A DNA stretch of 64,000 nucleotides, the filler included, from Stramenopiles sp. TOSAG23-6 (taxonomy: Eukaryota), in NCBI GenBank assembly GCA_900128565.1. It is 12 parts of 12 records of this genome, joined end to end, with 100 filler letters (N's around TTAATTAATTAA, not from the genome) between each part and the next. Parts side by side here need not be neighbours in the genome. Positions count along the whole stretch, not along the records: positions 5,407 to 10,705 come from LT636936.1; 11 more parts are not named here. One strand, given 5' to 3'. Both the position numbers and the translations under genes were made by a program. Of this stretch, positions 198 to 63,943 are shown in pieces. The notes below the pieces were generated by a model. The model did no database searches, was not told the DNA's origin, and saw only the letters and a program-made list of their open reading frames with translations. Numbering within the stretch: the stretch's first letter is position 1; the number at the start of each line of letters is the position of its first letter.

Positions 198-2414
198 TTA
201 TTGTTTTCTTCTTCTTCTTCTAAACTTTGGACTAAATCTTGAGAGGAAACTTCTCTTTTTCTTCAACTCTCCCTTTTTACTATTTCTAGTAGAAACTTTA
301 CTTGGAAAATTAGAGCCGCGTGCAAATAGTGGATTATCATGGGCATACTCAATAATTGCAACGTCTGAAGCTGAAGTACTATTTAAAAGGGCTTTTGATT
401 TAGTATCGATTCTTTCTTTTTCAAAATGAATCTTTTCATCTTTCAAAGTAGGCACCATAGTATTTTGAAAACTATTGGAATTGCCATGATCATTATACAT
501 GGACCTTCTTGAATTTATCAGACCTGAAAATGAGAATGACTTCATTCCTTTACTTTTATTTATTATTCCTCTACTATGTTGCAATTTTGGCTTACCAAAC
601 ACCCGTCTGGCTTTATTTGATGTTTTGTAAGCAGTGAAAATACCCCAAGGCCGAACTGCACTTTTTATTGTGTTTTCTGCTTTTATAATCGGATAAGACT
701 TACGTGGCATCATTTTTAAATCAATTAAAGGATTTGACCCTTCAATCCTAAATGTGTTATGTATACGCTGTAATTTGTTTTTACCTTGTATACCTATTTC
801 ATGTTTATCTCGTTCTGAACTATCATTGCTTTGGATATAGTTTTCTATTAGTTGCACGTTTTGCTCTTCATATTGATTACCATCAACGACATTCTTCGTT
901 TCATAATTTGTATCTGAGACAGCTTTATCAATCATGTCATTCGCCAATTCTTTTGCAATATTATCTAATGTTAAAGTTGTTTTTCTACCTAAAATACTTG
1001 CCGAATCTTTCCAAACAACATTTGATTCTTTAGTTGGCAAAGTATTCACATAATCTATTTCGTGTGCTGTATCATAATTTATTTTATTTGTATGATAATC
1101 TATTTGATGTTTTTTATTTGTAGGATTATAATCTATTTGATGTTTTTGATTCGGTGACATTAGATACATTTTTACACTCTCTAGTATCCGAATTTGTTCT
1201 ATATAAGCCACAACACCTAGGTCTATCAAACATTCTATGTCAAGCTGACATAAAATAGCACCATCTATGTCTTCTTCTTCAAAAGCACGTTTATGTATTG
1301 TGAAAAAATATTTCAAAAAAATCGTTAGGTACAAAATTTCATACCAAAAAAAAATTGATTCATGATGAAAACATACATGTTTTGACAAATCCGTTTGTTC
1401 TAACCACACTAAAACTTCCTGGGTGTTCCATAAAGGTAAATAGTGTGCCATACGTGTAATATAAGCCTCTGTTGGTGGTAACCACAAAGATGGTTTGTCG
1501 TCGTACTCGGAGGAAATTTGTTCAATCATTTGTGTTTTCCTCTGTTTGGAGTATTTTTCTATGACGTCATCATCAATAAAGCGAACATTTTTTATATTAT
1601 GGAAAACTTTTTCATTTGAGTTTGGGATACTATTCTTTGATATTTTAAGTCTTTCCTCTTCAAAACGTACTGTTTTTTTACTGAACTTGGAATTTAGGTT
1701 ATGAGCAATCTTCAATTCTGCACTTGCAATTTTCATCACTAAATTTACAGAGTTTTGTGTGACAAAACAATCTAATGAATGAGCTGTAATACTCTTATGC
1801 AACTTATATGCCAAACTTGCGCTAATACTATCACCAGAAGGAACACTTCTAATTGTTTCTAAAAACTGATAATTAGTCATCTCTTTGACAGGACTTGATT
1901 TGCTACCAGAAGTAAACACATCAAGCATCATTGCAGAAAAAATAGTAATGAACGCCGCTTCTTCCGAGCGGAAAACAACAAAATTTGAATTAATAAATAC
2001 TGATGCAAATGCACGAGCTACCATTTGAATCACTGAATAGTCTTCGACAATTTTAAAGAAACCCAAAAAATGCCGAAGCGAATGCTCAAAAGAACTTCGC
2101 TGGGGAAGCCTTGATTCCCACGCAAAAGCCTTTAGCAGATGGTAGGAAGAAATTCGTTTTGAAGCTGTTAAAAGACGCCCTAATAGAATCTTATCTAACT
2201 TTTGAAGTCTCTTCATTGATATAATATAGTACGCTATTGTATGATAATCTCTAAGTGAATCTATCAACCCATAATCAATCAGAAGCAAGATTGCAGCTTC
2301 TGGGCTCTTTTTGAAAAGTTCGATAAATTCTTCTTCAACTTGAGCTTCATGATCAGAAGACCATTCCCACATTACAGTATTGAAAAGCCTAGTACCACTG
2401 TATTTGTCATACAT
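198..2414 (-). CDS. Sec7-like domain + SAM domain protein; 2 exons (in-frame intron 1293-1376)
   Basis: N-terminal half resembles a Sec7 ARF-GEF domain (LDKILLGRLL, FEHSLRHFL, FRSEEAAFITIFSAMML). SAM motif WNTQEVLVWLE..DLSKH/KRAFEEEDIDGAILCQL becomes contiguous after removing 84 nt. Confidence 0.7.
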   Translation of the reverse strand: MYDKYSGTRLFNTVMWEWSSDHEAQVEEEFIELFKKSPEAAILLLIDYGLIDSLRDYHTIAYYIISMKRLQKLDKILLGRLLTASKRISSYHLLKAFAWESRLPQRSSFEHSLRHFLGFFKIVEDYSVIQMVARAFASVFINSNFVVFRSEEAAFITIFSAMMLDVFTSGSKSSPVKEMTNYQFLETIRSVPSGDSISASLAYKLHKSITAHSLDCFVTQNSVNLVMKIASAELKIAHNLNSKFSKKTVRFEEERLKISKNSIPNSNEKVFHNIKNVRFIDDDVIEKYSKQRKTQMIEQISSEYDDKPSLWLPPTEAYITRMAHYLPLWNTQEVLVWLEQTDLSKHVCFHHESIFFWYEILYLTIFLKYFFTIHKRAFEEEDIDGAILCQLDIECLIDLGVVAYIEQIRILESVKMYLMSPNQKHQIDYNPTNKKHQIDYHTNKINYDTAHEIDYVNTLPTKESNVVWKDSASILGRKTTLTLDNIAKELANDMIDKAVSDTNYETKNVVDGNQYEEQNVQLIENYIQSNDSSERDKHEIGIQGKNKLQRIHNTFRIEGSNPLIDLKMMPRKSYPIIKAENTIKSAVRPWGIFTAYKTSNKARRVFGKPKLQHSRGIINKSKGMKSFSFSGLINSRRSMYNDHGNSNSFQNTMVPTLKDEKIHFEKERIDTKSKALLNSTSASDVAIIEYAHDNPLFARGSNFPSKVSTRNSKKGELKKKRSFLSRFSPKFRRRRRKQ
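1293..1376 (-). other. family intron, GT-AT, 84 nt, phase 0
   Basis: cat|GTATGTTTTC...TGTACCTAAC...CACAATACAT|aaa; removal restores SAM domain spacing. Confidence 0.85.
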
Positions 2415-5306: not shown

Positions 5307-5406
5307 NNNNNNNNNNNNNNNNNNNNNNNNNNNNNNNNNNNNNNNNNNNNTTAATTAATTAANNNNNNNNNNNNNNNNNNNNNNNNNNNNNNNNNNNNNN
5401 NNNNNN
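5307..5406. other. artificial contig linker N44-TTAATTAATTAA-N44; repeated at 10706, 16102, 21495, 26885, 32260, 37635, 43005, 48366, 53726, 59086
   Basis: Identical 100-nt six-frame-stop spacer; intervening contigs never increase in length, running from 5299 down to 5260 nt. Confidence 0.97.
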
Positions 5407-5500: not shown

Positions 5501-7924
5501 ATCATCGTTCGGGAAGGAATGGAACATCCGAAATTCATATTGATTGAGGAGGGGAGTTGTAAGGTCATGACGCGAGCACATCATTCTTCTGGTGTTTTAG
5601 AAAAGGGTGATTGTTTTGGTGAAGATTCCATACTCAATAAAGATCTTACATCTGCAACGATTCTCGTTCATTCGGATATTCTAATAGTTTGGGTAGTCGA
5701 TGGAATTATCTTTGAAGATTTATTACGTCCACGAAAATATTCAATCATTCAAAGAAAATCCATCTTGAGTAAAATTGAATTATTTCGTGATTTGTCAACA
5801 GATCAGTTGTTACTTCTAGCAAATAAACTCGGAGAATGCTCATTTAAAAATGGTACAACAGTATTTTCTGAAAACGAGGAAGCAAATCATGTATGTTTTA
5901 TTTTTTTTTCAATTTCGAGTTTTTTTTTTCGTACGAAATTTTGTACCTAACAAATTTAAGTTTTTTTTTTTTGAATATTTTTCCAAAATACATATGTATA
6001 TCATTATATCAGGTAGCATTAAAGTGTTTACCACCCAAAGAACTCAGCAAAACATTGGATTAGGGTTAGGATTAAAAAATAGCAAAAATGAAACGAATCA
6101 ATATCCAAATAACTCTAATCAATATATTAGTACAATTTATCCAAATAAGATCATTGGTGTAACTGCATTATTATTGAATAAGAATCATTTCTTTACAGGA
6201 ATTGCTGAATCAGGAAAAGAGCAACCAACACAAGATATAGAACTATTTTCAATAAGTAAATTAGATGTGAGTGATATACTATCTATCTTATCTATACCAG
6301 TGATAGAAAGACTTCTAATAGCTCAACTTAGAACATTACCACAATATTACAGAAACTTAAATACAAATCTTGAAAAAATAATAGTTAATTCGATGAAAGT
6401 CAATAATTTTGAAACAGGCAGACACATCATTCCAGGTAATGACTATCCAAAAAATATGTTTTATATTTGTTCAGGAAGTGTCAAGATTATAAATATGTTG
6501 AAACAAAAGAGAAATGATAAAAATTATCCATTTTCAAAGAATTTCTCTACAAACAAAAACGAAACTGTGCATGTTTTTGATGAGAGTCATCATTCCTCAT
6601 CATTTCAAGATAATCAAGATAATGTTTTTGCTGGTGCTTTCTCATCTAAACAACGGAATAAAATTATTATTGCCGGTGAATTCTTTCCGGAAAGTGCAAT
6701 GTACGTTTTTATTATAATTTTTATTTTATTTTTTTTTTTGTAAAACTTTTTTGCACCTCACGAAAGTTTTGAAAAAAATGAAATAATTTTTCACAATACA
6801 TGAGTAAACGCCCAGAAATTGAAAATGACAAATATATTGTCAAATCAAATGCTGTTATAATTAGCTATATTACTGTTTCTGAAGCATATAACCAATTAAA
6901 ATATAATGGGGATAGAAATATGTCGTATGACGACATTAGTTCATCCGATATATCCTCAGATTCATCATATACATCAGATATTTCAGACACAAATCAAAAT
7001 AATGAGGATAATGATACAATGATGCTGTCACGTTTATTACATTCTACAATAAGTGAAGAAAACAATACAATAAATATCGACGCAAATATGACATTTCAAA
7101 AGAATAAAATAGACCAAAAAACAAAACTCAAATGTAAAAAGGATCAAAATGAGCATTTGAAATTGCAATCGCGTATACATCATCAAGAGCTAGTGTCTTT
7201 ACATCAAATAAAGAAAATTTCTCTGCTTGCAAAAATGACAAAATTAATGGATGAATTTATGGTGAAAAAACACGAATTTCATCGGTTACGACATAAACCT
7301 CGAAACAACCGATTATACAAAGCAGAAACTAATCCATATAATCAATATCCTGAAACAAATAGACATAGAAAGTTACTTATGGGTGCTCATATACATATGA
7401 AACGTGAGAGATATTTGAGGAAACATTTGCAAAAAGAAGCAGATAATAAGCGAAAATTAAAAATACAAGAACAAATAAAACAAAAGATAAAGCAAGAACA
7501 AATAAAACAAAAGATAAAGCAAGAACAAATAAAAAAAAGAAAACAGAAAAAACAAGAGCTTTTCAATGAAATAAATTATCCAGGAGTTTTGAATAATTTG
7601 GATTCTCTGAGTGAAATCAGTAAAACATTAGTAAAAGCTTTTGAAAAATTTACTAATGTAGAACGAAAAGATGTGAAATATATGACGCCATCAAGGACAA
7701 ACACTTTGTTTTCATACTCCAGACAAATTGGAGAATATGTCAATGAGGATGACATTTCTCCAACATCTTTTGATCAATATAAAAATAGACATTTTGATGT
7801 TCATGATGGGACACCAAAAAACACGCCTCCAAGTTCTCCTATCAAATATGAGAGACATTTTGATGTTCATGATGGGACACCAAAAAACACGCCTCCTGGT
7901 TCTCCTATCAAATATTTTTCATAA
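5501..7924 (+). CDS. cyclic-nucleotide-binding domain protein, 5' partial; introns 5891-5993 and 6701-6801
   Basis: Repeated cNMP motifs (FILIEEGSCKV..GDCFGE; FSENEEANH+MYIIISGSIKV; MFYICSGSVKI..GEFFPE); three ORFs join in frame after GT-AT removal. Confidence 0.8.
5891..5993 (+). other. family intron, GT-AT, 103 nt, phase 0
   Basis: cat|GTATGTTTT...CGTACGAAATTTTGTACCTAAC...CCAAAATACAT|atg gives ANH-MYIIISG; the first in-frame AG would delete the conserved strand. Confidence 0.88.
6701..6801 (+). other. family intron, GT-AT, 101 nt, phase 2
   Basis: gca at|GTACGTTTT...CACAATACAT|g agt joins ORF 5850 to ORF 6800; degenerate branch TGCACCTCAC. Confidence 0.8.
7786..7914 (+). repeat. 63-nt coding tandem duplication (RHFDVHDGTPKNTPP x2)
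   Basis: Near-identical direct repeat visible in DNA and protein. Confidence 0.85.
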
Positions 7925-10584: not shown

Positions 10585-10805
10585 GTACGTTTTTATCATG
10601 TCGATTTTTAATTTTTTTTTTTTGAAACAATTTTTTTTTTTTTTTTTTTTTTTTAGTAAATTTCGTACCTAAAAAAAAAAAATATTTTTTTTTTGTGCAA
10701 TTTTTNNNNNNNNNNNNNNNNNNNNNNNNNNNNNNNNNNNNNNNNNNNNTTAATTAATTAANNNNNNNNNNNNNNNNNNNNNNNNNNNNNNNNNNNNNNN
10801 NNNNN

Positions 10806-10837
<32 letters not shown>

Positions 10838-10887
10838 CAAAAAAAAAAAAAAAAAAAAAAAAATCAACCCTAACCCTAACCCTAATA

Positions 10888-13378: not shown

Positions 13379-13556
13379 GTACGTTTCTATTTTTTTTTTT
13401 TTTTTTTTTTTTTTAGTATGAATTTGAATTTGAATTTGAATTTTTTTTTTCAAATTTTTTTTTGTTTTTTTGTTTGTCCCGTTACATTAAAAAAAACAAT
13501 TCTGGACCTAACAAATCAAAATTCATTTTTTTTTTTAAATATGTTTATANATACAG

Positions 13557-14402
13557 GGACTTTGGATTCTCCCACCTCGGCAGGTACCGCAAGAATCGAA
13601 TTGGAAGCTCCTACACAGCGTAAATGTCGCTGGGCAGATGATCGCGAGGAGAGATCCAAAATTGATGCAATGATGCGAAATGGTACCCGTGGCAATGATG
13701 ATGAAAATCCTCATCAAAGTCAAAAGATGAATAGTCGTTGGTCTTGTATGTTTAATTTTTTTTTTTAATTTCGAATTTATTTTTTCGTACGAAATTTTGT
13801 ACCTAACGAATTTTTTAAAAAAAAATTTTGAAATATTTTTCCAAATTACATCGGATAGAGATGAAAATTCAGATATCACATTAATTGCACCAAAAGTTGT
13901 AAATTCTCGTTGGTCGAATCAAGTCAATCATGATACAAATTCAAAACATGATTCATCATCATCCACAACAAAAGAAGCAATACTATCAAAAGAAAAATCA
14001 GAGGAAGATTTGAAAAGGGAAAAAGAATTGGATGCAAAAATTCGTAAAATCCGAGAAAAAAACAAAAATGGACAAAAAAAAGGAAAAACGTTACCAGAAG
14101 GATTTACATTAGATCCTTTTGGGAACCCGGTACCTAAACAAAAATCTCAAACATTGCAAAATAATACTGAAAAATCACAGAGAGAAAAAGAAATCGATGA
14201 ACGTATTGCTGCCGTTCGAGCGAAAAATGCAGCTATAAAAGCTGGTACTTGGGTAGATCCAAATTTGACAAATTCTTCAACACAAAAAAAACATTCAAAA
14301 TTAGCTGCATTGGAAGCATCAACAGTACGTTTTAGTTTTTTTTTTTTTTCGTACAATTATCTACATTTATTTTTCATACGAAATTTCGTACCTAACGATT
14401 TC

Positions 14403-14433
<31 letters not shown>

Positions 14434-14677
14434 AAAAAAAATTTCATACGAAATTTCGTACCTAACGATTTAAAAAAAAAAAAAAAAAAAATATTTTTTC
14501 ACAATATATGTTGGTCCTGAACCATCTCAACATTTTTCAGCCACTTTACAAAATCTGTTAGAATCAATGAAAATCAGTTCAGAGGAAACTCAAAAAATGT
14601 CAGATATGAATCAAGAACAAATTTCAAAAATGGAATCAAAGACGCGTTCAATGAATCGCGAATTTCTCGCGGGACAT
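13557..14677 (+). CDS. hypothetical charged protein, partial; introns 13746-13851, 14325-14509 and a donor at 14678
   Basis: Three open segments join in frame on GT-AT removal. Confidence 0.6.
13746..13851 (+). other. family intron, GT-AT, 106 nt, phase 1; upstream exon ends TT
   Basis: tct t|GTATGTTT...TACCTAAC...CAAATTACAT|cg gat. Confidence 0.8.
14325..14509 (+). other. family intron, GT-AT, 185 nt, duplicated branch cassette; upstream exon ends CA
   Basis: aca|GTACGTTTT...(CATACGAAATTTCGTACCTAAC)x2...CACAATATAT|gtt, in frame with ATG 14567. Confidence 0.75.
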
Positions 14678-15021: not shown

Positions 15022-15463
15022 GAAATTGAATTTTTTTTTTTTCTTCTAAAAAAAATTTGTACCTAACGAAATATTTTTTGAAATATTGTCCCAAAAAAAC
15101 ATTTTGGGCTGGACAGCGGACTGATGAAAATGATGATTTCGTGCAACTTTTATTTCCTGATGCGATCGAATATAAAAAAATGTATGAAAATATTGGAATG
15201 AAAATGGTCTAAACATAAATGTTGAAAATTGTTAGGTACAAAATTTCCTACGAAAAAACATTTTTTTCGGTAAAAAAAAAAATGTTTCGTAGTAAAATAT
15301 GTCAAACGTTTCAAGAAAATGTTAGGTACAATTTTTTGTATGAAAAAAATTAGGAAAAATAAAAAAACAATATAAAAATTAGGAAAAATAAAAAACATCT
15401 CAAAATTTGGTTCAAAAAATAAATTTTTTACATTACATTTTTAAATTTTTAAATTTTTATAGT

Positions 15464-15921
15464 TTAGCACAAAAAAATATTTTTTTCCAAACTTTTAATC
15501 CCATATGAAGGTAAATTATCAATAAGATTTGCATCATCCTCAGTCACCTCATCCGATATTGTATTTTGTTTTTTTTGTGTATTTTGTGTATTTTGATTTT
15601 TTTGTTTGTTTCGTAATGAAGCCAGTTCTTCTTGCATGTATTGTGAAAAAATATTCAAAAAAAAAAAAATTTTTGTTAGGTACAAAATTTTTATAAAAAA
15701 AATTTCATACAAAAAAAATACAAAAAAAAAAAAATAAAATTTACATAATGATTTTAAGTTCATCAGACGTTAAATCTGAAGATTTTTTTTTTTTTTTGTA
15801 AAACATTTTCATCTAAAATTGTTTTTCGATTAGCAATTTTCATTATTTTTTCATCAACTGTAGATTTAATGACAAATCGAATAATTTTTACTACTTTTTT
15901 TTGACCTATTCTATGACATCT
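15464..15921 (-). CDS. SNF2-family helicase C-terminus, 5' partial; intron 15636-15744
   Basis: RCHRIGQKKVVKIIRFVIKSTVDEKI (helicase motif VI region), preceded by a TATAG acceptor at 15922. Confidence 0.8.
15636..15744 (-). other. family intron, GT-AT, 109 nt, phase 2
   Basis: att at|GTAAATTTT...TGTACCTAAC...CACAATACAT|g caa gives ELKIIMQEEL. Confidence 0.8.
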
Positions 15922-16049: not shown

Positions 16050-16201
16050 AAAAATTTTTTTTTTTTTTTTTTTTTGGTAAGGGTTATTCAAAAAATTTAT
16101 ANNNNNNNNNNNNNNNNNNNNNNNNNNNNNNNNNNNNNNNNNNNNTTAATTAATTAANNNNNNNNNNNNNNNNNNNNNNNNNNNNNNNNNNNNNNNNNNN
16201 N

Positions 16202-22233: not shown

Positions 22234-23110
22234 ATGACGACCACATCCGAAACTCCACTGTTGCGAGGGAACTCGAGTGTGAGTAAGAAGAAGCCATTCT
22301 GGACAAAACAAAAAGTAATCATACTTGTAGTCTTTCTAGTGGTTGCAATATCTCTTGGTATTTTAATTCCATTGGTCTTTCTACGTCGTTCAAAGCCAAG
22401 TTATAAGCCACCACCACCACCAGGACCACCACTACCCACACGTAAGCGTATAAAACTAATTAACGTTACAAGTGATCCCATACAAATTGATTTACTTACA
22501 GTTGTTCGATATGGCAAGGTTAATCATAACAATGACAACATTGACATTGGTCATACTGTACGTTTTTACAATTGAATTTTTTAACTAAATTTTTTTTTTA
22601 TAAAAATTTTGTACCTAACCAAAAAACAAATTTCGAATTTAATTTTTTTTTACAATACATGTACTTTATTTGGGTAATACATTACATTCACCACACCACT
22701 TCAAGATGGATCTTAGAACTAGTGAATATTATGATGTAAATTATACATATCTAGAAAAACCACAAAGAAGCTTTCAGTTTATACCTGATCAAATTTGTTA
22801 TACAATGAAATTAGATCATGCTTTAAGCGTTACTCATGTAATAAGCAAAATGCGTGAATGGTGGAAGCAAAATTTTGAACAATTTAAAACGTATAACAAA
22901 AATACTGCAAATTGTAGGATGTATATTGATTCAATGGCTTCCTTAATCACGAAAGATAATTCGATTCAATATCCCTCAAAATTAATGGGTTCAATTAAAT
23001 GGAAAGATTTACTCAAAGAAAATGATTCACAACAAAATTCACTTGTAAAATGTCCAAGAAGAGTTCTTTTGTTGAAAAAAAAACAAAAAAAACAAAGAAT
23101 GCTATTGTAA
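22234..23110 (+). CDS. membrane-anchored permuted papain-like (PPPDE/LRAT-like) putative peptidase; intron 22558-22660
   Basis: N-terminal TM; spliced GHT-VLYLG and YNKNTANCRMYI resemble the His/Cys dyad motifs. Confidence 0.5.
22558..22660 (+). other. family intron, GT-AT, 103 nt, phase 0; upstream exon ends CT
   Basis: act|GTACGTTTT...TGTACCTAAC...TACAATACAT|gta ctt tat ttg, in frame with ORF 22670. Confidence 0.82.
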
Positions 23111-25224: not shown

Positions 25225-26601
25225 ATGAAAACAACACGTGTATTTGTTCTTTTGGTTATACTATGTAATACAAGATTTGTACATGCTGCAACAACACCAG
25301 CAGCAGCGAAAATCGATGAAATTGGTTCAATACGACAAGCTCTCAAAAAAACACGACACCAACTACAAGCAAACGAGACCCACGATGATTTGACTGATGA
25401 AACAACGACATTGAATGATATACCAGTACGCACTGTAAATGAGCTTCTCTCTGTACCTGATATCGTATCTCTGTCCACTATAAATAAGAGGATGCATCAG
25501 CGGGTGAGTAATGATTCTGAACCCTTGGCAAGTGGCTTATTCACGAAAGTTGTGAGAGAATTTGGACGATACACCAATGAAGAAGAAATAAAAGAATCTA
25601 CTGAAAAACCAGAAAACGAACCTTTACTAAAGTGGTTATATCGTGTACGAAGAATTTACCGAATGCTAAAATTTCAAATTCCTATTCACTTCAAAAATAC
25701 AGGAAGGGATCTTACATGTATGTTTTTAAAGAAAAAAAAAAGATTTCAATTTTTTGTCTAAATTTTTTTTCATACGAAATTTCGTACCTAACAAATTTTT
25801 CAAAAAAAATTTTTTTTTTACAATACATGGCTTACATGGAAAGAAAACGAAAGCCGTGATGAATGGTTACACCGTATTGAAAGCATCTGGGAAAGAGAAG
25901 CTTTGATTGCATTGTATAATAGTACAAATGGAATTAATTGGAAGTGGAAAACAAATTGGAATACAGATGCAGATATTTGTGATTGGTTTGGAGTCATTTG
26001 TAATGAAGAAGGAAGTGTTATTTGGTTGTTATTGCAAAACAACCAACTAACTGGTTCAATTTCAAATGAAATTGGTCAACTAAAAAATCTCAGAGAATTG
26101 AAATTGTGGAACAACAAACTATCTGGTCCAATACCAATTGAAATTGGTCAACTAACAAAGCTCACACATTTGCGCTTGGAAAACAACCACCTAATTGGTT
26201 CAATTCCAAGTGAAATTGGTCGACTAACAAACCTTCTATATTTGAACTTGAATTGGAACAAACTAACTGGTTCNATTCCAAAGGAAATTGGTCAACTAAC
26301 AAAGCTCAAAAACTTGTACTTGAAAATCAACAAACTAACTGGTCCAATTCCAAAAGAAATTGGTCAACTAACAAATCTTGAAGAATTGGACTTGCAATGG
26401 AACCAACTATTTGGTTCAATACCAAGTGAAATTGGTCGACTAACAAATCTTAAGAAGTTGTTTTTGCAATACAACAAACTATCTGGTCCAATACCAACGG
26501 AAATTGGTCAACTAACAAAGCTCATAGGGTTGAACTTGTACAACAACAAACAATCTGTTTCCAATACCAAGGCTCAACTAAGAGAAATCTTTGGACTTTG
26601 A
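25225..26601 (+). CDS. signal peptide + F-box-like + plant-type LRR protein; intron 25718-25828
   Basis: MKTTRVFVLLVILC signal; LNDIPVRTVNELLSVPDIVSLSTINKRM; spliced frame leads into EREALIALYNSTNG..W..CDWFGVIC and about seven 24-aa NxLxGxIPxEIGxL repeats. Confidence 0.85.
25718..25828 (+). other. family intron, GT-AT, 111 nt, phase 1
   Basis: aca t|GTATGTTTT...TTTCGTACCTAAC...ACAATACAT|gg ctt; contains an in-frame stop; removal fuses ORFs 25165 and 25903. Confidence 0.87.
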
Positions 26602-38966: not shown

Positions 38967-40614
38967 TTAATTCTTTTTCTTACATCGATTTAGACGACTA
39001 AGTTTGTGATGAAATCCGTTTCACTTCTTGAATAACCTTACCCAAAATAATACGAACGTGTACACGGTTCTGAAGCATTGTCGGATGTTTTCGAGATACC
39101 AGTGTTAAATTTTGAGACACAGAATCATAACGAGGCCCACATGTATTGTCAGACAATATTTCAAAAATTTGATTTGTTTTGTTAGGTACAAATTTTACTA
39201 TGAAAAAAAAACAATTGGAAAAAAATCATAATGAAAAACGTACATAGCTGAGAAAGTGTTTGTATCATAGATTTATCTAGACCGAGGGCTGGCACATGGA
39301 CTTTTAAAGCAACTTTTCTTTGACCTGGGTGAACTTCTAATTCACTCTGCCGGACGCCTATGTACTCAGCAAATTCATATTGAACTCGAGCACCTCCGAT
39401 GTATGGGTTATGAAAAAATATTTCAAAAAAAAAATCGTTAGGTACGAAATTTCGTACGAAAAAAAAATCAAATTTGAAAAAAAAATAAAACATACATTCT
39501 GGTCGTTCCATCAAAAAAGATTCAAAATTATTTTGGACTTTTACTTTACTTACTTGATGATGCATCCATTTATCAAATTTGGCATACCACTGTTCAAGCT
39601 GAAGCAATTTTTTTACACCACGTTTACTGTGTAAAGAGAACAAAACATCTTCCCCACTAGAGTTATAATCATCTGTACCGCCTAGAGCCTATGTATTTTG
39701 GAAAAATATTTCAAAAAAAAAACTTAAATTTGTTAGGTACAAAGTTTTGGTTCAAAAAAGAAACCTTTTGTTTTACCACCTTCAAATGCTTCAGGGCCAT
39801 TATGCTCTGTGTCATCATATGTATAATTGAATAGATCTAATGCTGGATCCTTTGAGAGATAATGCTCATCTAGATCCTCACAAGTAAATCTTTGTCCATT
39901 ATTTTGTACACTCCGAGAAATTTCGGGATGCTTTTGTGCCCATCTGTCATAATACTTATTAATTATTCCATCCATAACACCGCCATCTTTCTCATGGAAT
40001 TCTTTGAATCCAGCACCCATACCATCATCACCTTCTTCCAAATCATCTTCGTCGTCAACGACGCCCACGTTTGTAGAAGGAACCTCTTGAGACAATTGCG
40101 AACTCACATCAAAACCACAATGCCATAAAGCATTAATTACACCTTCTGGTACACCTTTTCCAGTTCCAGATTCACTTGCGTCAACAATATCAGGCAATAC
40201 TTCCTCTACTTGAGCATCAAAAGCATCCATGATTGCTAAAGTTTCCGCATCTAATGTAGCTCGTTCATTTTCTTCAAAGTTTTCACCAAAAAGTTCTACA
40301 GTGAGTTCGTCCATTCGCTTTGTCAGCGCATCAGAGTCAGCCAGCAATTTTTCATCTGACATTAATTCCACTAAAGCATCATAAGCATCCGCCCCAATCG
40401 CATCTTCAAGAGAAGGAATAATACGAGAAGTGCGTTCACTTGTAGCTTCTCTGAGTGCGGTAGCGTACTCATTAGAGAAGCAGCGTGAAGAGTGGGAACA
40501 AAGTATATATTTAGAAGCTTGAAAAGAAGGAGATGTACTACCTATACGTACACCAACATTCTGCAATGGCTTGGATATCGTATGCCTTACGGATCTACAT
40601 GTGGTGTGCAACAT
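38967..40614 (-). CDS. mitochondrial ribosomal protein mS35 (Rsm24/MRP-S28 domain)-like; 3 introns
   Basis: Mitochondrial presequence-like N-terminus; HPGQRKVALKVHVPALGL..LSQL-CGPRYD..LTLVSRKHP..QNR only after GT-AT splicing. Confidence 0.72.
39141..39243 (-). other. family intron, GT-AT, 103 nt, phase 1
   Basis: cta t|GTACGTTTT...TGTACCTAAC...ACAATACAT|gt ggg cct cgt tat restores the conserved LxGPRY motif. Confidence 0.88.
39403..39495 (-). other. family intron, GT-AT, 93 nt, phase 1, in frame
   Basis: gaa t|GTATGTTTT...GTACGAAATTTCGTACCTAAC...AACCCAT|ac atc; perfect 16-nt palindrome; exact acceptor chosen by frame. Confidence 0.72.
39691..39776 (-). other. family intron with atypical 5' half, tentative GT-AT, 86 nt
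   Basis: ggt g|GTAAAAC...TGTACCTAAC...AAAATACAT|ag gct; donor uncertain. Confidence 0.5.
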
Positions 40615-40895: not shown

Positions 40896-43004
40896 ATGAG
40901 GGGTAGCATGCGAAAGTCACCTCCATCTTCAATTTCATCGAGGGAGAACAATAAGAATTCGAAGAATACAAAAGCGAAAGACAGTGGAGTCGACGCATAC
41001 ACGTCGAAGCCCATCGACGCGACGCGGGCAAGAATATTGAAGCTTGCAGCTGCTCGTGAAGCTCGGCGTAAACGCGCTGCTAACTTCAAGGAAGAGCGCA
41101 AGGCGGAAGAAGCTCGCAATCTCAAACAGGGTAGGCCTGGGGATGTAGACTTTCAACGTCTGATCAAAAAGTTCCGTGCAACACAGCTAAAAGTAGCTCA
41201 GCCATATGCTGCACCAAAAACTGTTGGTACCGATGGAGAAAACGCAAAAATAAATATATGTGCTCGTGTGAGGCCTGTAAACGAGAAAGAGAAGCGAAAC
41301 AAATCATTTGCTGCAGTCACAGCATCAAATCCAACAATGTACGTACATGAATGTAAGTTTAAAGTCGATGGCATAACAAAACATTTGGCTAATCACACTT
41401 TTGAATATGACAACACATTTGGCGAGACTAGTAGCAATGAAAGTGTTTACGCTGTGACTGCGCGCCCATTGGTAGAGTTTGTGTTCAAAAAAAATTTACG
41501 TCAACGGAGTCGTCGTGGACTTGGTGGAAATGCTACATGTTTTGCTTATGGACAAACAGGATCTGGTAAAACATGTACGTTTTTTATCATGAATTTTTTC
41601 CTACATTTTTTTCGTACGAAATTTTGTACCTAACAAATTTCGAATTTCGATTTTTTTTATAATACATATACAATGAGTGCCCTTCAGGTAGAAGCCGCTC
41701 GTGATATGCTAGATATGTTAGAATTACCTGAATATAGTGGTTTATGTCTCAATTTATCTTTTTTCGAAATATATGGTGGTCGGGTGAAGGATCTTTTACA
41801 TGAAGAGTCTGAGCTTTTGCACATCCGAGAAGATGGGAAGGGTGTAGTTCATGTCCGTGGTCTTCGTAGTACTCAGGCTTCTACTGTAGATGAGGTACTC
41901 AGTCTCATCGCACGAGGTAGTAGTAAACGAAAAACTGAGGCAACTGCCATTCACGAGCAATCCTCACGATCACACGCAATATGTAATTTAGAACTGCGAT
42001 TTAAAAATAATGGGAAAGAATATGGGAAGTTATCTTTAATTGACTTGGCTGGAAGTGAAAGAGCTTCCGAAACTGTTAAAGATAAGGGAAAGCAACGACG
42101 CGTCGAAGGTGCAGAAATCAATAAATCTCTTTTAGCACTGAAGGAATGCATTCGTGCTCTGGATAAAGGTTTGACTCATGTGCCTTATCGTCAAAGTAAG
42201 TTGACACTAGTTCTCAAGGAAGCATTCTTCCCAGGTGCCCGAACGACTATGATAACAACAATTGCACCAACTCAAGCTGACCAAAATCACACACTCAATA
42301 CGCTGAGATACAGTAATCGTATTAAAGCAAAGGGAAATAGAGGAGACACAGGTAAAGCATCTTTTACAGATACAAAAAGTGATATTGATGTTGTAAGAGC
42401 TCGTGAACTTGAAATAAAATTAGCTGCATCTCGAAATCTATCCCCACCCCATGTAGAAGGCAATACTGAATCATCCGTATTAAAAAAGTCAAAAATTGGG
42501 AAGCCTAGAATCCCGCAACCATATTCGTCTGGGTCTATCCCAGAGCCTGCATCACACCCCAAACTAGTTAATAAATCATCCAAATCTTCTAAATTTTCTA
42601 GCAATTCTTCGAATAAGCGAACATCTACCCAAAAGAAATATTCAGATAAGAGTGGTAAATTTGTAAAAGACTGTAGTAATATAGAAAAACGAAATGCTCG
42701 TAAAACAAAGAATGTCAATAAAAAGAAAAGTAAAAAAATTTCGAGTCCTATAGAAAGTGCTATAGGCAGCACATTTGATGAAATGATGGAGACGATGCGA
42801 CGGAATGGATCCACAATAGATAGTGTGATTTCTAGTGAAGATGACGACATGGATTATATGGAAATATTTGATGTAGAAATGGAAGATATGGGAATGGATG
42901 ATTTAGGACTACTTGATGGTATTGAAAGCCCTGAAATTTACTCGAAGGAATATACAAAAAATACAAAAAATACAAAAAATACAAAAAATACAAAAAATAC
43001 AAAA
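40896..43004 (+). CDS. kinesin-13 family protein, 3' partial; intron 41575-41667
   Basis: VHECKFKVDGITK (KVD loop), ATCFAYGQTGSGKT-YTM, SSRSHAI, LIDLAGSER, EGAEINKSLLALKECIRAL, HVPYRQSKLT. Confidence 0.93.
41575..41667 (+). other. family intron, GT-AT, 93 nt, phase 1, directly after the P-loop
   Basis: aaa aca t|GTACGT...TAATACAT|at aca atg gives GSGKTYTM; contains an in-frame TAA. Confidence 0.92.
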
Positions 43005-45184: not shown

Positions 45185-48100
45185 ATGGTCCTTCCCGGAG
45201 TCCCCGTCTTACAGGCATCATTACAAAAACTTTCTCATGGGTCAAATGACAAACTAAGTAGCTGGGACACTCACTTCTTCCGCACAAATGTGAGTAGTCG
45301 AAGTCTCGAATATTACAAAAATGAAACGGCCCCATCAGGGAAAATGCTTGGGTCAATACCGCTTGAGGATATTCAAGCAATCACTCGAGTTGATCAGCGA
45401 CATTTTGTCTTGAAAATAAATTTATTGTTGGGTTCAGAAACGCCAGAAACGTCTAAATATTGGTTGGATAAGCTAGAGGGATTTATTCACGAGAATGCCG
45501 CACACCAATGTGGACAAGCTGTAGTGAATGCTCGAAAAGATGTGGAAATGAAGAACAAAGCTGCACGTTCAGTTGAAGGCCCAGCAACGCGACCATCACG
45601 CCGTCGCTCACGAAAACTCCATAAAAGATTAAGCTCTAAAATTGGAAAAGTTGGAGCTAAAGCTGCAAGTAAAGTGAAGGGTGGAGTGACTAGAGGTTCT
45701 CACATTGTTGCGAAGCATGCAGATAATTTCGTGTCGAATTCTCGCGCAACAAAAGGTTTGAGAAATGCTGTAAAGAGTATTGATAATTCTTCACACATTA
45801 AAAAAATACGAAATGCTGGGCATATGGCAACAATTGCTTTTATGGGTTCACCAGACGACATTGGTGGAATTACTTTTGAGGAATTTAGACGTTGGTATCT
45901 TGAAACACAAGTTGATGAAGATATGAGATATATTCAAGAAAAAAATAAGGATAACAAAAATGCTAATCAGGCTGGTTATATGTATAACTTATTTCAAAGG
46001 TTTGACGAAGATAATTCTGGTACGCTTGAGAAGGAAGAAGTTCGAAAACTTTTGAAAATGCTTGGAAAGAAATCAACAGGTTTATTTCGCTTGAAAAGGT
46101 CCAAATTAGATGCGGCCTTTGCAGAGATGGATTCAGATTGTTCTGGAATGATAAGTTTTGACGAGTTTGTCGACTGGTGGCAGTGGAAGCATCCTGAAGA
46201 AAAAGTTGAATGTATGTTTTATTTTTTTCAAATTCGATTTTTTTTTCGTACGAAATTTTGTACCCAACGATTTTTTTTTGAAATATTTTTCCAAAATACA
46301 TGGACTGTAGATCAACGTATTAAATATTTGTTTGATAAAATTGATACGGATAATTCAAATTTACTAGAGAAAAAAGAAGTTAGAAAATTATCTAAACTTT
46401 TAGGTAATCGACTCACATCCATGTGGAAAGGGCAAGATGCTTTAGACCGTGCGTATCAAGAAATGGCATCTAAAAGGCCAGAAAGAATGCCGGACTTTGA
46501 GGATGATGCTGTGGATGAGACGAAAAGCAGTGATATAGATGATGCCGATGATGCCGAAGATGTTATGGATGAATCTAAGAATAGTGAAATTTATGAAGAA
46601 TCTAAGCAAGTGAATAATAATGAATTGGATACAAACGTAGACAAGGAAGCAAATCAAACAAGCATTGCAAACAAAAATGCTGCTACTAAGAAGGAAAGTA
46701 GTCCTCGAACTGTTAGACAAAGGAATATTTATGCTGATTTTCCATCCTCAATCAGTGAACGAGTTGAAAAGAAAAGTTCAAAGAAGAAGAAAAAGAAAGC
46801 GAAACAGTCAAAGGTGGTTAAGAAATCAGTAAAAACAAAACAAAATATGAAAGACGAAAGTCCGCCAATGACACCAGCGCCACCTACGAAGCCATATACA
46901 CCAGATGGATCAAAAACCAAAACAAGACTCCCACCAAATACAAATCAAATTTCAAGTGAACTAACTTTCGATGAAAAGATACCAAAGCAGAAAATTTCAA
47001 CCAAAGAGGTTTCAAATGAAAAACCAACAAAGCGGAAAACTTCAACTGAAAAAACAACAAAGCGTAAAACTTCAAATGAAAAAACAACAAAGCGGAAAAC
47101 TTCAAATGAAAAACCAACGAAGCGGAAAACTTCAAATGAAAAAACAACAAAGCGGAAAACTTCAACCGAAGAAATTTCAAACGAAAAACCAACGAAGTTG
47201 AAAACTTCAACTGAAGAAATTTCAAATGAAAAAGTTTTAAATAAAAAAAAACAACAAACTCCAAAGACATTTGATGAAATATCTAAAGAATTAACAAAGT
47301 TCTACCACCGTTACGCACCTGATCGAGTTCACAAGGTACCTAAAGTATTGAAAAAATACAAAGGCAAGGAAGGCATTCTATACGACATGTACAAGAAAAA
47401 GTACGGCGATGCTCCAGATATTCTACTTCATTTGAAAAACGAGATGGTGGAGGATGATATAAAAGCCATAGAACCAGCAAAAACAACAAACAAAGTACAA
47501 AAGAGTTATAAAAAAGATCCACCAGTCCCCCCTCCGACTGCAGCGGTAAGTATTTCAAATAAAATTACGAAAGCACCACCAGTACTACCTGTTGACAGTA
47601 CACCACCAAGCAGTATAATTGAGAAGGATCATTCAGTAGAGGACAGTGAAACAATGGGGGATAGCTTGTCATTTACTGCAAATCAACACCAAGATGACAA
47701 TAATGGGGATGAGGATGGTGAGGAGGAGGAAGATGGGGAAGATGATGTTGATAAGGAGGATGGTGGTGATGAGGAGGATGATGAAATGGAAGAAGATGAT
47801 GGAGAAAATGATGGAGATGATGGAGAAGATGATCGGGAAGATGATGGGGAAGATGATGGGGAAGATGATGGGGAAGATGATGGGGAAGATGGGGAAGATG
47901 ATGTCGGAGGATCATGGGATGATGAACCAGAACAAGAGAAATTGCTTCAAAGTAATCAGGAGGATTCTAAAACAATACGCAATGTAAAAGAGTACGTAAA
48001 TAATCAATATTCTGAAAGTGACCACGAAGATGATGTAGTCAAAGAATCTGAAGTAAAATATACAGAACCTGAGTCTGAAGAATCTGAATCTGAAGAGGGT

Positions 48101-49059: not shown

Positions 49060-50040
49060 ATGAATAGTTTGAGTTCATCTGAAAATACTTTGCTAGGTAT
49101 TGTCACTGGAGCAGAAGTTCTTTTGGTTGTTCAACCTTTAATATTTTGGAAAAATAGTAAACAACAGTCATTACCCTTTACTGCTAATCCACGTACAATA
49201 TATAGAGGTCTTGGTGCTTCTGTGTCTTCTCAAGCGTCCGTCACTGGTGTGCAATTCTTCACGACTGGCATCATTAAACATTTCTTGACACAAGATTCTG
49301 ATAGAAATCTATCATCAACAGAAACTATATTATCTTCTCTCATTGGTGGTTGTTGTAGTGGATTACTATGTGGACCCACAGAACTTTTAATGATTCAACA
49401 ACAAAGACATGTACATTTTTTATGTTTCATTTCTAATTTCTAATTTTTTTTTATAGAAAATTTTGTACCTAAGAAAAAAAACATTTTTTTACTATTTTTT
49501 TTTGTATAGGGTGGAACATTAATTAATGCAGCGAAACAATTATGGAAAGGAAAAGGAATTACAAGTATGACACGTGGCATTCTTCCATCTATAATGAGAG
49601 AAGGTGTGTATTGTACAGGATATTTAGGTATAGCACCAGTGGTTTCAATACATTTTGAAAATACTTTTGTTAATAATAATAATAATAATAGAAAAAATTT
49701 TGAACATTCTGAACATTCTGAACATTCTGAACATTCAGACACATTTGAAAATTCTGGTGGAATTCGTGCACGATTAGCAGGTGCAATTGTGGGTGGTCTT
49801 TTTGCTGGTATTGTTAGTCATCCACTTGACACAATTAAAACAAAATTACAAGGCGATGGTTTAAGTAAGAAATATTGTACCATCCGTGACGTCATTGTAG
49901 AAACACGAAATAATAGAGGTTTAATCAATGGATTGTATAAAGGAGTTTTATGGAGAAGTGCTACAATAATCACAGCTACTTTACTTATGAATATATTTAA
50001 AGATTATACAGCACCTGTTTTATTTCCTACAAAATTATAA
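49060..50040 (+). CDS. mitochondrial carrier family (SLC25) protein; GT-AG intron 49411-49509
   Basis: QPLIFWKN..Q, PTELLMIQQQ, HPLDTIKTKLQGD signatures. Confidence 0.9.
49411..49509 (+). other. family intron with canonical GT-AG ends, 99 nt, phase 0
   Basis: cat|GTACATTTT...TTTTGTACCTAAG...GTATAG|ggt gga, in frame with ATG 49567. Confidence 0.85.
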
Positions 50041-55024: not shown

Positions 55025-56317
55025 ATGGGGGAAATTCATGCAATAGCAACAACGCAGCAGAAGTTGGACTTTTATAAACCACCTAGTGCTATGAAATTTG
55101 TCACTGAAAAGAAGTACCTCAAAGGAATGAAACTTTTGGACATAGAAAGTTCACAAGACGAGGCTTTGGTATCTCTTGAATTTGCTGCGAGACTTGGGCA
55201 TGCAAAGGCACAAATCCAGCTATATCACATTTATGGAGATCGTACCAGAGCTTTAGAGTGGTTAACATTTGCGGCGGAGAAAGGTGATACCGAAGCTCAG
55301 TACTTGCTTTCCTGTCATATCCGGAAACAGCTACCGGGTGAACACTCTAACGAGACTAACGAGACTAACGAGACTCCTACTTCTTGGTTGACTTTGCTGA
55401 TGAACGCGGCATGCAAAGGCCACGCTGATGCGCAAAGGGAGCTTGCTATTTGTTATTTGAATGGCGTCGGTGTGCTGAAGTGTGACACCAAAGGCTGTTC
55501 TAGATTCGAGGCTGCGAGTCATTGGCTGTTGAAAGCTTCGGCACAAAATCATGCGTCTGCTCAATTCAAGCTTGCGACTCTCTACGTTAGATACGCCAGT
55601 TGTCAGACGAGTGGCTCACTCAAAGAAGTTGTACAATTATATACAAAATCGGCAGAGAATTACAATGAAGCGGCAATGTGGGTCTTGATTGATATATATA
55701 ATAATGGCAAGTTTGGCGAACCAAAATGTCTTAAAAAGTCATTTATGTGGTATGAAAAGTTAGCTAATCTAGGTGATAGTAAAGCCCAATATGAACTAGG
55801 TGTACGTTTTAAGCTTGGCGATGGATGTAGGCAGTGTAACGTGAAAGCATTTGAATGGTTTTCAATTTCAGCTGGCAATGGCAATAAAGATGCACTCAGT
55901 GCTGTTGCTCATTGCTACGAGAGAGGTTGTGGCGTGGAAAAGTCTTTGCTTCAAGCTTCACGATTGCAAAAAATTGCTGGGGAGTTTGAAAGAGCAACGA
56001 AGACAAATGGTGTCGCATATGTACGTTTTAAAAATTGAATTGAATTTTGTTTTTTGTCGTTTTTTGTACGAAATTCCGTACCTAACGATTTAAAACAAAA
56101 AATTGAAATATTTTTCACAATATATGTAGACACTGCGTATGTTTGTGAGTCTGCGCGCACGTGGAATAAGTGCAAATTGCGGCGAGCTATCCAGACATCC
56201 ACCAAGCACAGAACAATTGGGATAAAAAAACATGAGTCAAAACAACACCGGCGCGACCAACGACGACACTGGAAACAAATAAATTGGTCCAAGGGTCGAA
56301 GAAATAATTGGTCCTAA
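55025..56317 (+). CDS. Sel1-repeat protein; intron from 56021 to 56125 (AT) or 56129 (AG)
   Basis: Multiple AA..G...AQ..L...Y..G.G repeats; both acceptors give open last exons. Confidence 0.85.
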
Positions 56318-58794: not shown

Positions 58795-59085
58795 TATCAT
58801 CTACTCTATCTTTTTCAAAGAGAGAAACTTCTGGATAATTTGTAGCATCACGAAACCATGATCGTGCATATGTCATGTACAATAGAGGTCTAATCTCAGA
58901 TGTTTCATTTGCACCACCATAATGCAATGTTCTATAATCATGAATAATTACTGAACCCTATATTTTTTGTACAATATCTTTTTTTGATTTTTTTTGTTAG
59001 GTATGGAATTTTCTATGAAAAAAAAATGAGAATACTGGTTAGGGTTAAAACGTACATTTCCTTCTAGCAAAGATTCATCAAACTT
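58795..59085 (-). CDS. PhyH-family 2OG-Fe(II) dioxygenase fragment; GT-AG intron 58958-59055
   Basis: GSVIIHDYRTLHYGGAN..RPLLYMTYARSWFRD. Confidence 0.8.
58958..59055 (-). other. family intron with canonical GT-AG ends, 98 nt, phase 0
   Basis: aat|GTACGTTTT...CATACCTAAC...AAATATAG|ggt tca. Confidence 0.82.
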
Positions 59086-59239: not shown

Positions 59240-59597
59240 TGATCGTGCAAAATCAATTCGAGATATTTTAGCTCCAAACTTATGTTACAAAAGTGTTGTA
59301 GATTGTGACCACGCTGCCGAAAGTAAAGAAAAGAATGTTTTTCATCATGAATTTCATTTTTTTTTGTATGAAAATTTTGTACCTAACGATTTTTTTTACA
59401 TCAAAAAAAAAAATTCACAATATATGAGTAAAATTGTTGGACGTTTAAAACTGCTTCAGCAAATACTGGGGAAAACTGGAAGAACGAAAGAAACTGTCAA
59501 ATTGTTTTGTGAAAAAGTGAGATTTGAGCATAAAACTCTCTTGGATCGAATTCAAAATGTTCAACTTGAACAAGTGAATAATACTCAAACTGAATAG
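59240..59597 (+). CDS. hypothetical protein 3' end with an in-frame family intron at about 59333-59425
   Basis: Open frame after a family acceptor; internal TACCTAAC element. Confidence 0.55.
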
Positions 59598-62509: not shown

Positions 62510-63943
62510 TCATCTATGGTCTAGTATTGTACTACGAAGTGTTTTTCTTGCTCCAGCTCTATACTTGTGATATCGACTTAATACCCTTTCAATCTCTTTT
62601 TCTTCAGAAAAATCAATCTCTATCTTTCTAGTTTTTGGTAAATTTAGACGTTTCTTCAATACGATATCGTGTTCTGTCGTGAAGGAATATGGAGGGGGTA
62701 ATCCCCTACTTGTAGTTTCTACACTATTTTCACGGTATATTTGACGTGGTGGTGTAGGTGGATATATTTGACGTGGTGGTGTAGGTGGATATAATTGACG
62801 TGGTGGTGTAGGTGGATATAATTGACGTGGTGGTGTAGGTGGAGTTCCGGTGTCAATAGACTCATCAATAAATTTTTTTGATCTTTTAACATCGTCTGTA
62901 AGTGGAGGAATTGGAGGGAAACCCGTCATTTTTCCAGTATTACTTAATTCGTTATATGTACGTGAAGTGTCTGAACTTTTTGTTTGTTTTGTTTGTTTTG
63001 CTTGAACATCAAAATTGCTTTTTCTTGCTGGGGATAAATATGTTTGAGAAATTGATTCTAATGACGACTGATGAAAATTAACATTTCTATTTTTTGGCCA
63101 TGCTAATAGTATAGATGAATCATTACTACTTTCATCATTTGTACTAGAAGGATGAATCCTATTTGTATCAAAATCACTGCCAAGTTTTTCATGATACACT
63201 TTCAAGTGTGAAAAATGTGTTTCAGCTCGTTGCTGTTTTACAAGAGGCTCAGGCTTTTGTCTTGTTTCATTCGAATTACTATCCGATAAATGAGATGAAG
63301 ACATTTGTCTTGTTTCAACTTTACTATTTGACTTGTTTTGAGTTGTACTAAAATTGGATTCAAATGAAATATTGTCATCTTCGAATAATGGTGTTTCTTT
63401 CTGAAAAGTATAATTTTGTTGTGGTAAAGATTCTGCAGGCAATTCTGTATTATGAACTATTTTTTCATCTTTGAAATTTTCGTGAAAGGTTGATGTTTTG
63501 TGAAAAAATATTTTTTCAAAACATTGAAATGTGTTAGGTATAGAATTTCGTACGAGAAAAAAAAATGAAAATCAAATGAAAACGTACATTTCGTTTTTGA
63601 TCTGTCTTGATTGTCATTATTACTATCAATAATATGCTTATACTTGGCATGTTGTAACGTATAATTATGTATTTTGGAAAAATATTTGAAAAAAAAACAT
63701 AAATTTGTTAGGTACAAAATTTCGTACGAAAACAAATCGAATTTGAAAAAACATAAAACATACATAATTCGACGAAAGGACATCTTGCATATTTTTCCAT
63801 GTTACCTCTCCCGTTTTTTCAATATCAAATGCACGAAATAATGCTTTCATTCGATGTGTACTAATCTTTAGCTTATATTTTCGTAATCCGTGGCAAAATT
63901 CATCAAAAGTTATAGTATTTGAACGATCTCTGTCTAAACGATA
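62510..63943 (-). CDS. EF-hand protein with PPTPPRQ repeats, 5' partial; introns 63667-63763 and 63493-63587
   Basis: DRDRSNTITFDEF, FDIEKTGEV; three ORFs join in frame by GT-AT removal. Confidence 0.78.
63493..63587 (-). other. family intron, GT-AT, 95 nt, phase 1
   Basis: aaa t|GTACGTTTT...TATACCTAAC...CACAAAACAT|ca acc, in frame with ORF 62510. Confidence 0.83.
63667..63763 (-). other. family intron, GT-AT, 97 nt, phase 0
   Basis: tat|GTATGTTTT...CGTACGAAATTTTGTACCTAAC...CCAAAATACAT|aat. Confidence 0.83.

Follow-up and report, generated by a model that had tools for sequence, protein, structure and literature searches.

In silico analysis of a 64,000-nucleotide (nt) stretch of DNA from Stramenopiles sp. 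TOSAG23-6 (GenBank assembly GCA_900128565.1), hereafter the window, has identified a short repeated element at positions 5891-5993. This element is probably, at a probability of about 0.7, one copy of an abundant family of short introners. An introner had already been proposed in the first-pass annotation of this DNA, and that reading is borne out: introns alike over their whole length are found in unrelated genes, which is the descriptive definition of an introner. Judged from their sequence, the copies would be removed from RNA by the spliceosome.

According to the proposed mechanism, each copy would bring its own donor (GTAYGTTTT), a branch-site-like motif, a T-rich tract and a 3' end. The copies would sit in sense orientation in unrelated genes and be excised as GT...AT introns, the exon keeping its own AT. 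The family would have spread by insertion at (AC)AT sites, the intron-terminal AT being either a duplicated copy of the target or the element's own end, and a few old copies would have changed their final T to G and become ordinary GT...AG introns. We infer both the mobility of the family and the origin of its AT.

A family of short introns alike from end to end

The copy under study reads ...aatcAT/GTATGTTTTATTT...TTTCGTACGAAATTTTGTACCTAAC...CCAAAATACAT/atgtat (a slash marks the cut) or, at greater length, ...aatcAT/GTATGTTTTATTTTTTTTTCAATTTCGAG...TTTCGTACGAAATTTTGTACCTAAC...GAATATTTTTCCAAAATACAT/atgtat. Family members measure 84-185 nt and share one layout, successively: GTAYGTTTT, TTTCGTACGAAATTTTGTACCTAAC, a T-run and GAAATATTTTTCMAAATACAT. 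In an alignment of 18 copies, three blocks are conserved: TGTAYGTTTT at the donor, TTTTTTTCGTACGAAATTTTGTACCTAAC at the centre and GAAATATTTTTCMAAATACAT at the 3' end, which is kept across the family as ...CMAAATACAT. Two subfamilies can be distinguished, GTATG...CCAAAATACAT and GTACG...CACAATACAT, each represented in several genes and marked by shared diagnostic stretches.

The 12-mer core TTTCGTACGAAA, with at most one mismatch, occurs 22 times in the window against 0.39 expected (maximum of 2 in 100 shuffles), and a hidden Markov model built from 5 copies gives 35 matches at E <= 0.01, the 5 seeds counted in. Four copies had been noted as similar in the first-pass annotation: 5891, 46212 and, on the minus strand, 39403 and 63667 (starting at 39495 and 63763). 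They are indeed alike from end to end, and their global identity of 0.83-0.89 spans the whole length and is not limited to short splicing signals. The whole-length similarity takes in CAAATTCGA and GAAATATTTTTCC, stretches without a known signal. The best pairs from unrelated genes reach 0.89 (46212 and 39495), 0.88 (5891 and 63763) and 0.87 over 93-104 nt, and the median global identity of all copy pairs is 0.66.

Eleven of the 22 contig ends beside the linkers that join the window lie inside a copy, the usual behaviour of assemblers at high-copy repeats. Core fragments are also found in non-coding stretches between genes, which could be untranslated regions (25027-25066 and ~62440-62509), and degenerate copies lie between convergent genes at 15202-15353. 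The core is duplicated in the copies at 14325-14509 and 37487-37634. A metagenome scan with a 22-nt core revealed one locus, L001, on an independent contig, where the copy reads ACAT/GTATGTTTTAG...CACAATACAT/GG. The core has 0 matches on viral contigs; two viral contigs with matches to a 21-mer of the 3' end, L002 and L003, were set aside as chance, the family model giving none on L002 and 21 nt at E = 0.25 on L003.

The copies behave as introns. Excision as GT...AT (or AG) joins open frames of the same phase in all 20 complete copies (19 in the window and the one at L001), so that the seamless removal of the element together with one AT, suggested earlier, holds throughout; some of the flanks are short, a neighbouring intron or contig end being close by. 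Together with 6 donor-only copies, the 19 complete copies of the window break the frames of unrelated genes. Phases 0, 1 and 2 are represented by 8, 9 and 3 complete copies, respectively.

Three junctions are fixed by homologues, one in a kinesin and two in a mitochondrial ribosomal protein. The kinesin P-loop GQTGSGKT is separated from YTM by a 31-codon insert with a stop, while GQTGSGKT[F/H/Y]TM is uninterrupted in three homologues; removal of this copy (41575) joins 276 and 445 open codons. For the mitochondrial ribosomal protein (PF10213), two homologues read ...EPE/YIG[ND]AR... across 39495-39403 and ...LC/GPRY... across 39243-39141. In the gene that carries the copy under study, cNMP_binding domains (Pfam) have been identified in both flanking exons; taken singly, the exons around 5891 did not resolve the split domain, and that result was set aside. 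The copies are listed below with their position, strand and features.

5889..5890, plus strand: exonic AT directly 5' of the donor of the copy under study.
5891..5993, plus strand: copy under study, GTATG...ATACAT, 103 nt and phase 0, its gene coding for cyclic-nucleotide-binding domains; its removal leaves 130 open codons upstream and 249 downstream.
6701..6801, plus strand: diverged copy in the same gene as 5891-5993, AT/GTACG...ATACAT, phase 2; 293 and 373 open codons.
13379..13556, plus strand: AG-ended member, GG/GTACG...ATACAG/GG, 178 nt.
13746..13851, plus strand: copy after TT, with the end TTACAT.
14325..14509, plus strand: copy after CA, internal core duplicated, with the end ATATAT.
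22558..22660, plus strand: copy after CT, with the end ATACAT; 109 and 149 open codons.
25718..25828, plus strand: copy in a leucine-rich-repeat (LRR) gene, ACAT/GTATG...ATACAT.
41575..41667, plus strand: copy in the kinesin P-loop GQTGSGKT/YTM, ACAT/GTACG...ATACAT, 93 nt; three homologues contiguous across the 31-codon insert.
46212..46301, plus strand: copy between EF-hand exons, AT/GTATG...ATACAT; 347 and 687 open codons.
49411..49509, plus strand: diverged AG-ended copy, ACAT/GTACAT...GTATAG/GG.
56021..56125, plus strand: copy with the end ATATAT.
59337..59425, plus strand: copy with a shortened 5' end, AT/GTTTTTCAT..., and the end ATATAT.
63667..63763, minus strand: copy 88% identical to 5891-5993.
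63493..63587, minus strand: copy with the end AAACAT.
58958..59055, minus strand: diverged AG-ended copy, AT/GTACG...ATATAG/GG.
39403..39495, minus strand: copy in the mitochondrial ribosomal protein gene, acceptor AT 4 nt before the ancestral ACAT; junction ERPE/YIGGARV by homology.
39141..39243, minus strand: second copy in the mitochondrial ribosomal protein gene; junction QLC/GPRY by homology.
39691..39765, minus strand: 5'-truncated copy reduced to its 3' half; a GT donor compatible with the homologues is lacking.
15636..15744, minus strand: copy with the donor GTAAAT and the end ATACAT.
1293..1376, minus strand: in-frame, stop-free 84-nt copy in a Sec7-domain gene.
10585, 14678, 32450, 43152, 53638 and 53898: six donors whose copies run into a contig end or gap.

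Since the copy at 1293-1376 is in frame and free of stops, a 750-codon open reading frame (ORF) of the Sec7-domain gene runs through it, and an ORF-based call would add 28 spurious residues. At the truncated copy, 39691-39765, the homologues require ...FFEPK(Q)ALGG..., i.e. an intron beginning with TT or CT; the allele may be broken, or part of the copy may have been lost from the template or the assembly.

The exonic AT and the route of spread

An AT at the exon end, previously reported for 18 of 26 donors, was recounted at 18 of the 25 donors of the window, against a background of 10.7% (n = 2162 GT in long ORFs; P = 8e-13); the remaining donors are preceded by CT (3), TT, CA, TA and GG. Its extension to ACAT, also reported earlier, is confirmed at 7 of 19 AT-ended donors, L001 included (AC frequency 5.5%, P = 4e-5). 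Standard U1 small nuclear RNA (snRNA) pairs with G, not U, at position -1. The exon-end AT is thus not explained by U1 pairing, because U1 favours G at this position.

The repeat AT/...AT/ is present in 16 of the 20 complete copies. For these 20 copies, the bases before the donor were compared with the intron's last bases, and the intron's first bases with the opening bases of the next exon. Flank matches within a locus equal the between-locus expectation at 12 of 12 positions. There is no locus-specific component, so the AT...AT repeat is family-wide only, and a repeat of that kind, by the criterion of Gozashti et al. 2022 (PMC9860276), does not tell a duplication apart from a bias towards AT sites. 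Introns after exons that end in CT, TT or CA still have the 3' AT, and the two ATs do not vary together. A target-site duplication is thus a candidate origin of the AT and not a demonstrated one.

The termini GTAT/ATAC form an inverted repeat of 4 nt, or of 6 nt if the ATs are counted (ATGTAT/ATACAT); in the GTACG subfamily it is 3 nt (GTA/TAC), or 5 nt with the ATs. Of the terminal inverted repeat with a flanking AT described in the first-pass annotation, the repeat itself stands, but it is only 4-6 nt long and does not establish a miniature inverted-repeat transposable element (MITE); neither membership of the MITEs nor of ISL2EU is established. The AT pattern fits three situations equally well: an AT duplication followed by drift of the exon copy, an AT owned by the element with a preference for (AC)AT sites, and pairing of the exonic AU with the intron-terminal AU. 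A TA duplication and a Helitron-like A/T insertion would be different ways of parsing one 3-nt sliding ambiguity, and no data favour either.

The full model of the first-pass annotation is a sub-case of the best explanation given here: a cut-and-paste MITE with a true 2-bp AT duplication serving as acceptor, moved by an autonomous transposon that lies in another part of the genome. This is a tentative reading, with chances short of even. It would account for the AT/...AT/ repeat in 16 of 20 complete copies, for the mutually complementary termini ATGTAT...ATACAT, for the core fragments outside coding sequence (25027-25066 and ~62440-62509) and for the truncated and duplicated-core copies. Duplications of 5'-AT-3' are made by ISL2EU of the PHIS superfamily (PMC4482050), and introners with their own donor and a duplication-derived acceptor have been described (PMC9860276). 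The comparison of flanks speaks against it, as within-locus matches never exceed between-locus ones and the 3' AT is unchanged where the exon ends in CT, TT or CA. The wider ISL2EU target A/AT/T is not seen either: A is found at -3 in 6 of 16 cases and T after the 3' AT in 0 of 16. The inverted repeat of 4-6 nt is weaker still in the GTACG subfamily. As stated in the first-pass annotation, no transposase was found in the window; the Pfam analysis of 30 ORF stretches revealed no transposase, integrase or reverse transcriptase domains. Finally, no antisense copy was seen within genes, though no formal antisense test was run.

An RNA-mediated route, in which copies reverse-splice into transcripts, are reverse transcribed and recombine into the genome, would make AT or ACAT a site preference of the reaction. 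We regard it as unlikely, albeit a serious competitor. All 25 copies with assignable flanking frames lie in sense, each copy comes with a complete set of splicing signals, the inverted termini are very short, and the want of a locus-specific duplication and of a transposase in the 30 ORF stretches agrees with such a route, which has been proposed for fungal introner-like elements (summarised in PMC9860276). On the other hand, core fragments are found in apparently non-coding DNA between genes, though possibly in untranslated regions, and reverse splicing offers no known reason for a strong exon-end AT that matches the intron-end AT. Selection that removes antisense insertions, as these cannot be spliced, explains the sense-only copies equally well. 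A putative DNA transposon whose sense copies are favoured by selection stands somewhat ahead of the RNA-mediated route. Ciliate-like excision at the DNA level was set aside, given the spliceosomal donor and branch motifs and the stramenopile origin of the best protein matches.

Splice boundaries and internal signals

With AT at the end of the intron and, in most cases, of the exon too, the cut can slide over up to 3 bases without a change of the product. All 20 complete copies begin with GT, 16 of them with GTATG or GTACG. Between the branch motif and the 3' end, the 16 AT-type copies contain no YAG and only 2 AG in 613 nt. Splicing to the next exonic AG would put 8 of these 16 copies out of frame and find no open frame in one more, and at 39495 it would remove the conserved YIG. 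AG is thus not the general acceptor, given the AG-poor 3' parts and the frame shifts at the next exonic AG, and the non-AG acceptor of the first-pass annotation finds support here. Homology places the junction of 39495-39403 directly behind CCCAT, four bases ahead of the ancestral ACAT. The GT...AT boundary is shown in this one homology-fixed case; elsewhere it follows from the frame rule. At 6801/6802 and 59425/59426 the next exon begins with GAG (ACAT/GAG and ATAT/GAG); an AG thus follows in frame, three bases beyond the AT, and might act as an alternative acceptor at the cost of one codon.

Three copies end in AG: ATACAG at 13556, GTATAG at 49509 and ATATAG at 58958. One of these ends differs from ATACAT in the last base only, and all three copies are among the more diverged members. 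These three cases suggest members that have turned canonical.

Where the exon ends in AT, the true boundaries could be AT...AC (ATGTAYG...ATAC) and GT...AT only apparent. Introns with a first A and a last C can be spliced by both spliceosomes. Such boundaries are possible in 11 of the 20 complete copies, with an identical mRNA; AT-AC intron classes have been surveyed in PMC1557818. Even so, this reading is rather improbable. At the homology-fixed 39495-39403 the shifted intron would read AT...CC, so that AT...AC is excluded for this copy, and two AT-preceded copies with ATATAT ends would turn into AT...AT. In four complete copies the donor follows GG, TT, CA or CT and not AT, three copies end in AG, and the conserved GTAYGT is a standard donor only with the cut before G.

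The internal signals are spliceosomal in appearance. A branch-like GTACCTAAC, in short form TTTTGTACCTAAC, is present in 18 of 19 copies, 32-45 nt short of the 3' end, with a T-run or T-rich tract after it; one copy has no such motif. The yeast-type branch sequence is TACTAAC, to which GTACCTAAC is close. A further intron of L001 shares only these motifs with the family:

L001, ~395-530, plus strand: canonical-looking intron, AG/GTACGTCAAAA...GTACCTAATG...TTCACAG/C, with only the donor and branch motifs in common with the family.

Both motifs are thus general signals of the lineage, and the remaining similarity is specific to the family.

Minor-spliceosome (U12-type) introns with a shifted consensus are very unlikely. 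The ACCTAAC motif resembles the U12 branch consensus. Of the donor and branch motifs of the family, GTAYGT and TACCTAAC, the donor is in full GTAYGTTT (consensus GTAYGTTTT) and not RTATCCTT, without the ATCC of U12 donors, and the branch-like one stands 32-45 nt before the 3' end as against ~10-20 nt typical of U12 introns. An Rfam scan of the window found no snRNA genes or other Rfam families. The notion that there is no mobile family and that an old, lineage-wide extended splice consensus with T-runs makes unrelated introns look alike is hardly credible: the canonical-looking L001 intron (AG/GTACGT...GTACCTAAT...CACAG) does combine family donor and branch motifs with an otherwise dissimilar sequence, but identity of 0.83-0.89 extends over the whole length of copies, CAAATTCGA and GAAATATTTTTCC included, and the subfamilies have diagnostic stretches and contigs break within copies.

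Two structural ideas were rejected. An RNA hairpin is not supported, the folds of 8 copies being no stronger than those of shuffled sequence (z from -1.80 to +0.78); pairing of the ends consists of the six terminal bases (6 bp) in 5 of 8 minimum-energy folds. The central palindrome CGTACGAAATTTYGTAC as a conserved stem shows no compensatory changes in the aligned variants, as judged by eye.

Several points weigh against the introner family with GT...AT introns as set out above. The uniform sense orientation is not what a DNA transposon predicts without selection, and there is no locus-specific duplication signal in the 20 complete copies. The 11 copies of the form AT/GT...AC-AT/ give the same mRNA whether cut as GT...AT or as AT...AC, and DNA cannot separate the two. 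Three queries of the protein database returned no protein of the same species spanning the junctions, the third having no match of any kind. The copies may have been gained recently, a step for which their similarity is the sole guide. As contigs break at repeats, the genome-wide share of such introns may be lower than in the window, and the assembly apparently has at least 1 frame error (MORC-like gene, 16714-16736).

Comparison with known systems and genomic setting

Introners are the best-documented source of new introns, and the known cases are mostly GT-AG or lack conserved ends altogether. The present family has a textbook donor and branch site, yet an AT end. One interpretation, put forward tentatively and with the balance somewhat against it, is that the major spliceosome of this uncultured marine protist routinely accepts an AU end. 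A burst of one small introner family at AT sites would have made most introns GU...AU, with the older ones drifting to GU...AG through a T-to-G change of the final base, and the non-AG acceptor would be a direct by-product of insertion chemistry that duplicates the AT. If RNA data bear out the AT end, the family would offer a clean natural system for the choice of the second-step site without AG, and would allow a test of whether the target duplication of an element can set the splice-site rule of a genome. Gene finders restricted to GT-AG would miss most introns in such genomes, breaking here the kinesin P-loop and the mitochondrial ribosomal protein, and the same restriction would hide such families from surveys that start at annotated introns.

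The introners of the Chrysochromulina type (Gozashti et al. 2022, PMC9860276) are likewise short repeated introns in unrelated genes with a donor supplied by the element; the bases at their 3' boundary also repeat those before the donor, and removal is seamless. In that type a 4-bp duplication yields an ordinary AG, whereas the present family has an AT repeat and a non-AG acceptor, and a duplication is not demonstrated. The introner elements of Micromonas and Aureococcus (PMC11282704) are non-autonomous and MITE-like, have one splice site within the duplicated target and account for hundreds to thousands of similar introns. They possess clear duplications of at least 3 bp, clear inverted termini and GT-AG boundaries, in contrast to the 4-6 nt termini and GT...AT boundaries described here.

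Amoebophrya introners (PMC7789003) and the introns of Fritillaria borealis (PMC11282704) are also transposon-like and non-GT-AG, with short border repeats and an ambiguous cut. These have inverted repeats of 8-20 nt acting as hairpins and many terminal dinucleotides, non-GT donors included. The present family differs from the hairpin types of Amoebophrya, Fritillaria and Euglena in its donor (GT in 20 of 20), its acceptor (AT or AG) and the lack of excess folding.

The U12-type expansion in Physarum (10.1101/2020.10.12.336362) similarly presents short inverted-repeat ends, a 2-nt direct repeat and GT-AT pairs; a transposon with splice-site-like termini has been proposed as its origin, and its minor system tolerates GT-AT. 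The Physarum introns belong to the minor spliceosome, their donor is RTATCTTT, their branch site stands 9-12 nt before the end and their repeat is TA; the present family shares none of these features. ISL2EU (PHIS; PMC4482050) is the only group documented here with 5'-AT-3' duplications, and the preference for A/AT/T reported for it is not matched by the values given above for the bases beside the repeat. The 30 ORF stretches of the window yielded neither a DDE/THAP transposase nor a YqaJ gene, the partner genes of ISL2EU. No report was found of an introner combining a standard donor and branch site with an AT acceptor; the supplementary tables of PMC9860276 and PMC12130899, which perhaps list the lineage, lay outside this search.

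The window is AT-rich, with a GC content of ~21-41% in 2-kb steps, and consists of contigs of ~5.3 kb arranged by falling size (5399 down to 5360 bases) and chained by eleven linkers:

5307-5406, 10706-10805, 16102-16201, 21495-21594, 26885-26984, 32260-32359, 37635-37734, 43005-43104, 48366-48465, 53726-53825 and 59086-59185: linkers of the form N44-TTAATTAATTAA-N44, with stops in all six frames.

As these are small unplaced contigs, genes on the two sides of a linker are not genomic neighbours. The genes identified are eukaryotic and encode kinesins, an SLC12-like permease, a CAAX protease, RCC1, ankyrin-MYND and BspA-type LRR proteins, as well as EF-hand, Sec7, MORC and HMG-box proteins. 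The top matches of two window proteins are stramenopile or environmental sequences at 49-56% identity, and the sequencing runs that contain DNA of the window are marine (19 runs listed); parts of the contig at 37735-43004 are present in three metatranscriptome runs. The host of the family is an AT-rich marine protist with stramenopile-like proteins.

Within the MORC-like gene, a one-base frame change at 16714-16736 is not accompanied by an intron-sized insert and represents either an assembly error or a real frameshift. Two tandem genes for BspA-type LRR proteins, 33350-34588 and 34874-35767 on the plus strand, are nearly identical over their N-terminal ~85 residues and so appear to stem from a tandem duplication of recent date. 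The telomere-like motif TTAGGGTTA occurs 17 times, against 0.40 expected:

8148, 10372-10407, 10871-10885, 12541, 21675-21707, 21972-21986, 35947-35973, 54826, 59039 and 59892: telomere-like TTAGGGTTA.

Some of these copies code for Pro-Asn runs within ORFs, while others lie directly upstream of gene starts in the manner of a promoter motif. Runs resembling TTAGGGTTA are also present at ~2270-2330 of L001, after the end of a gene.

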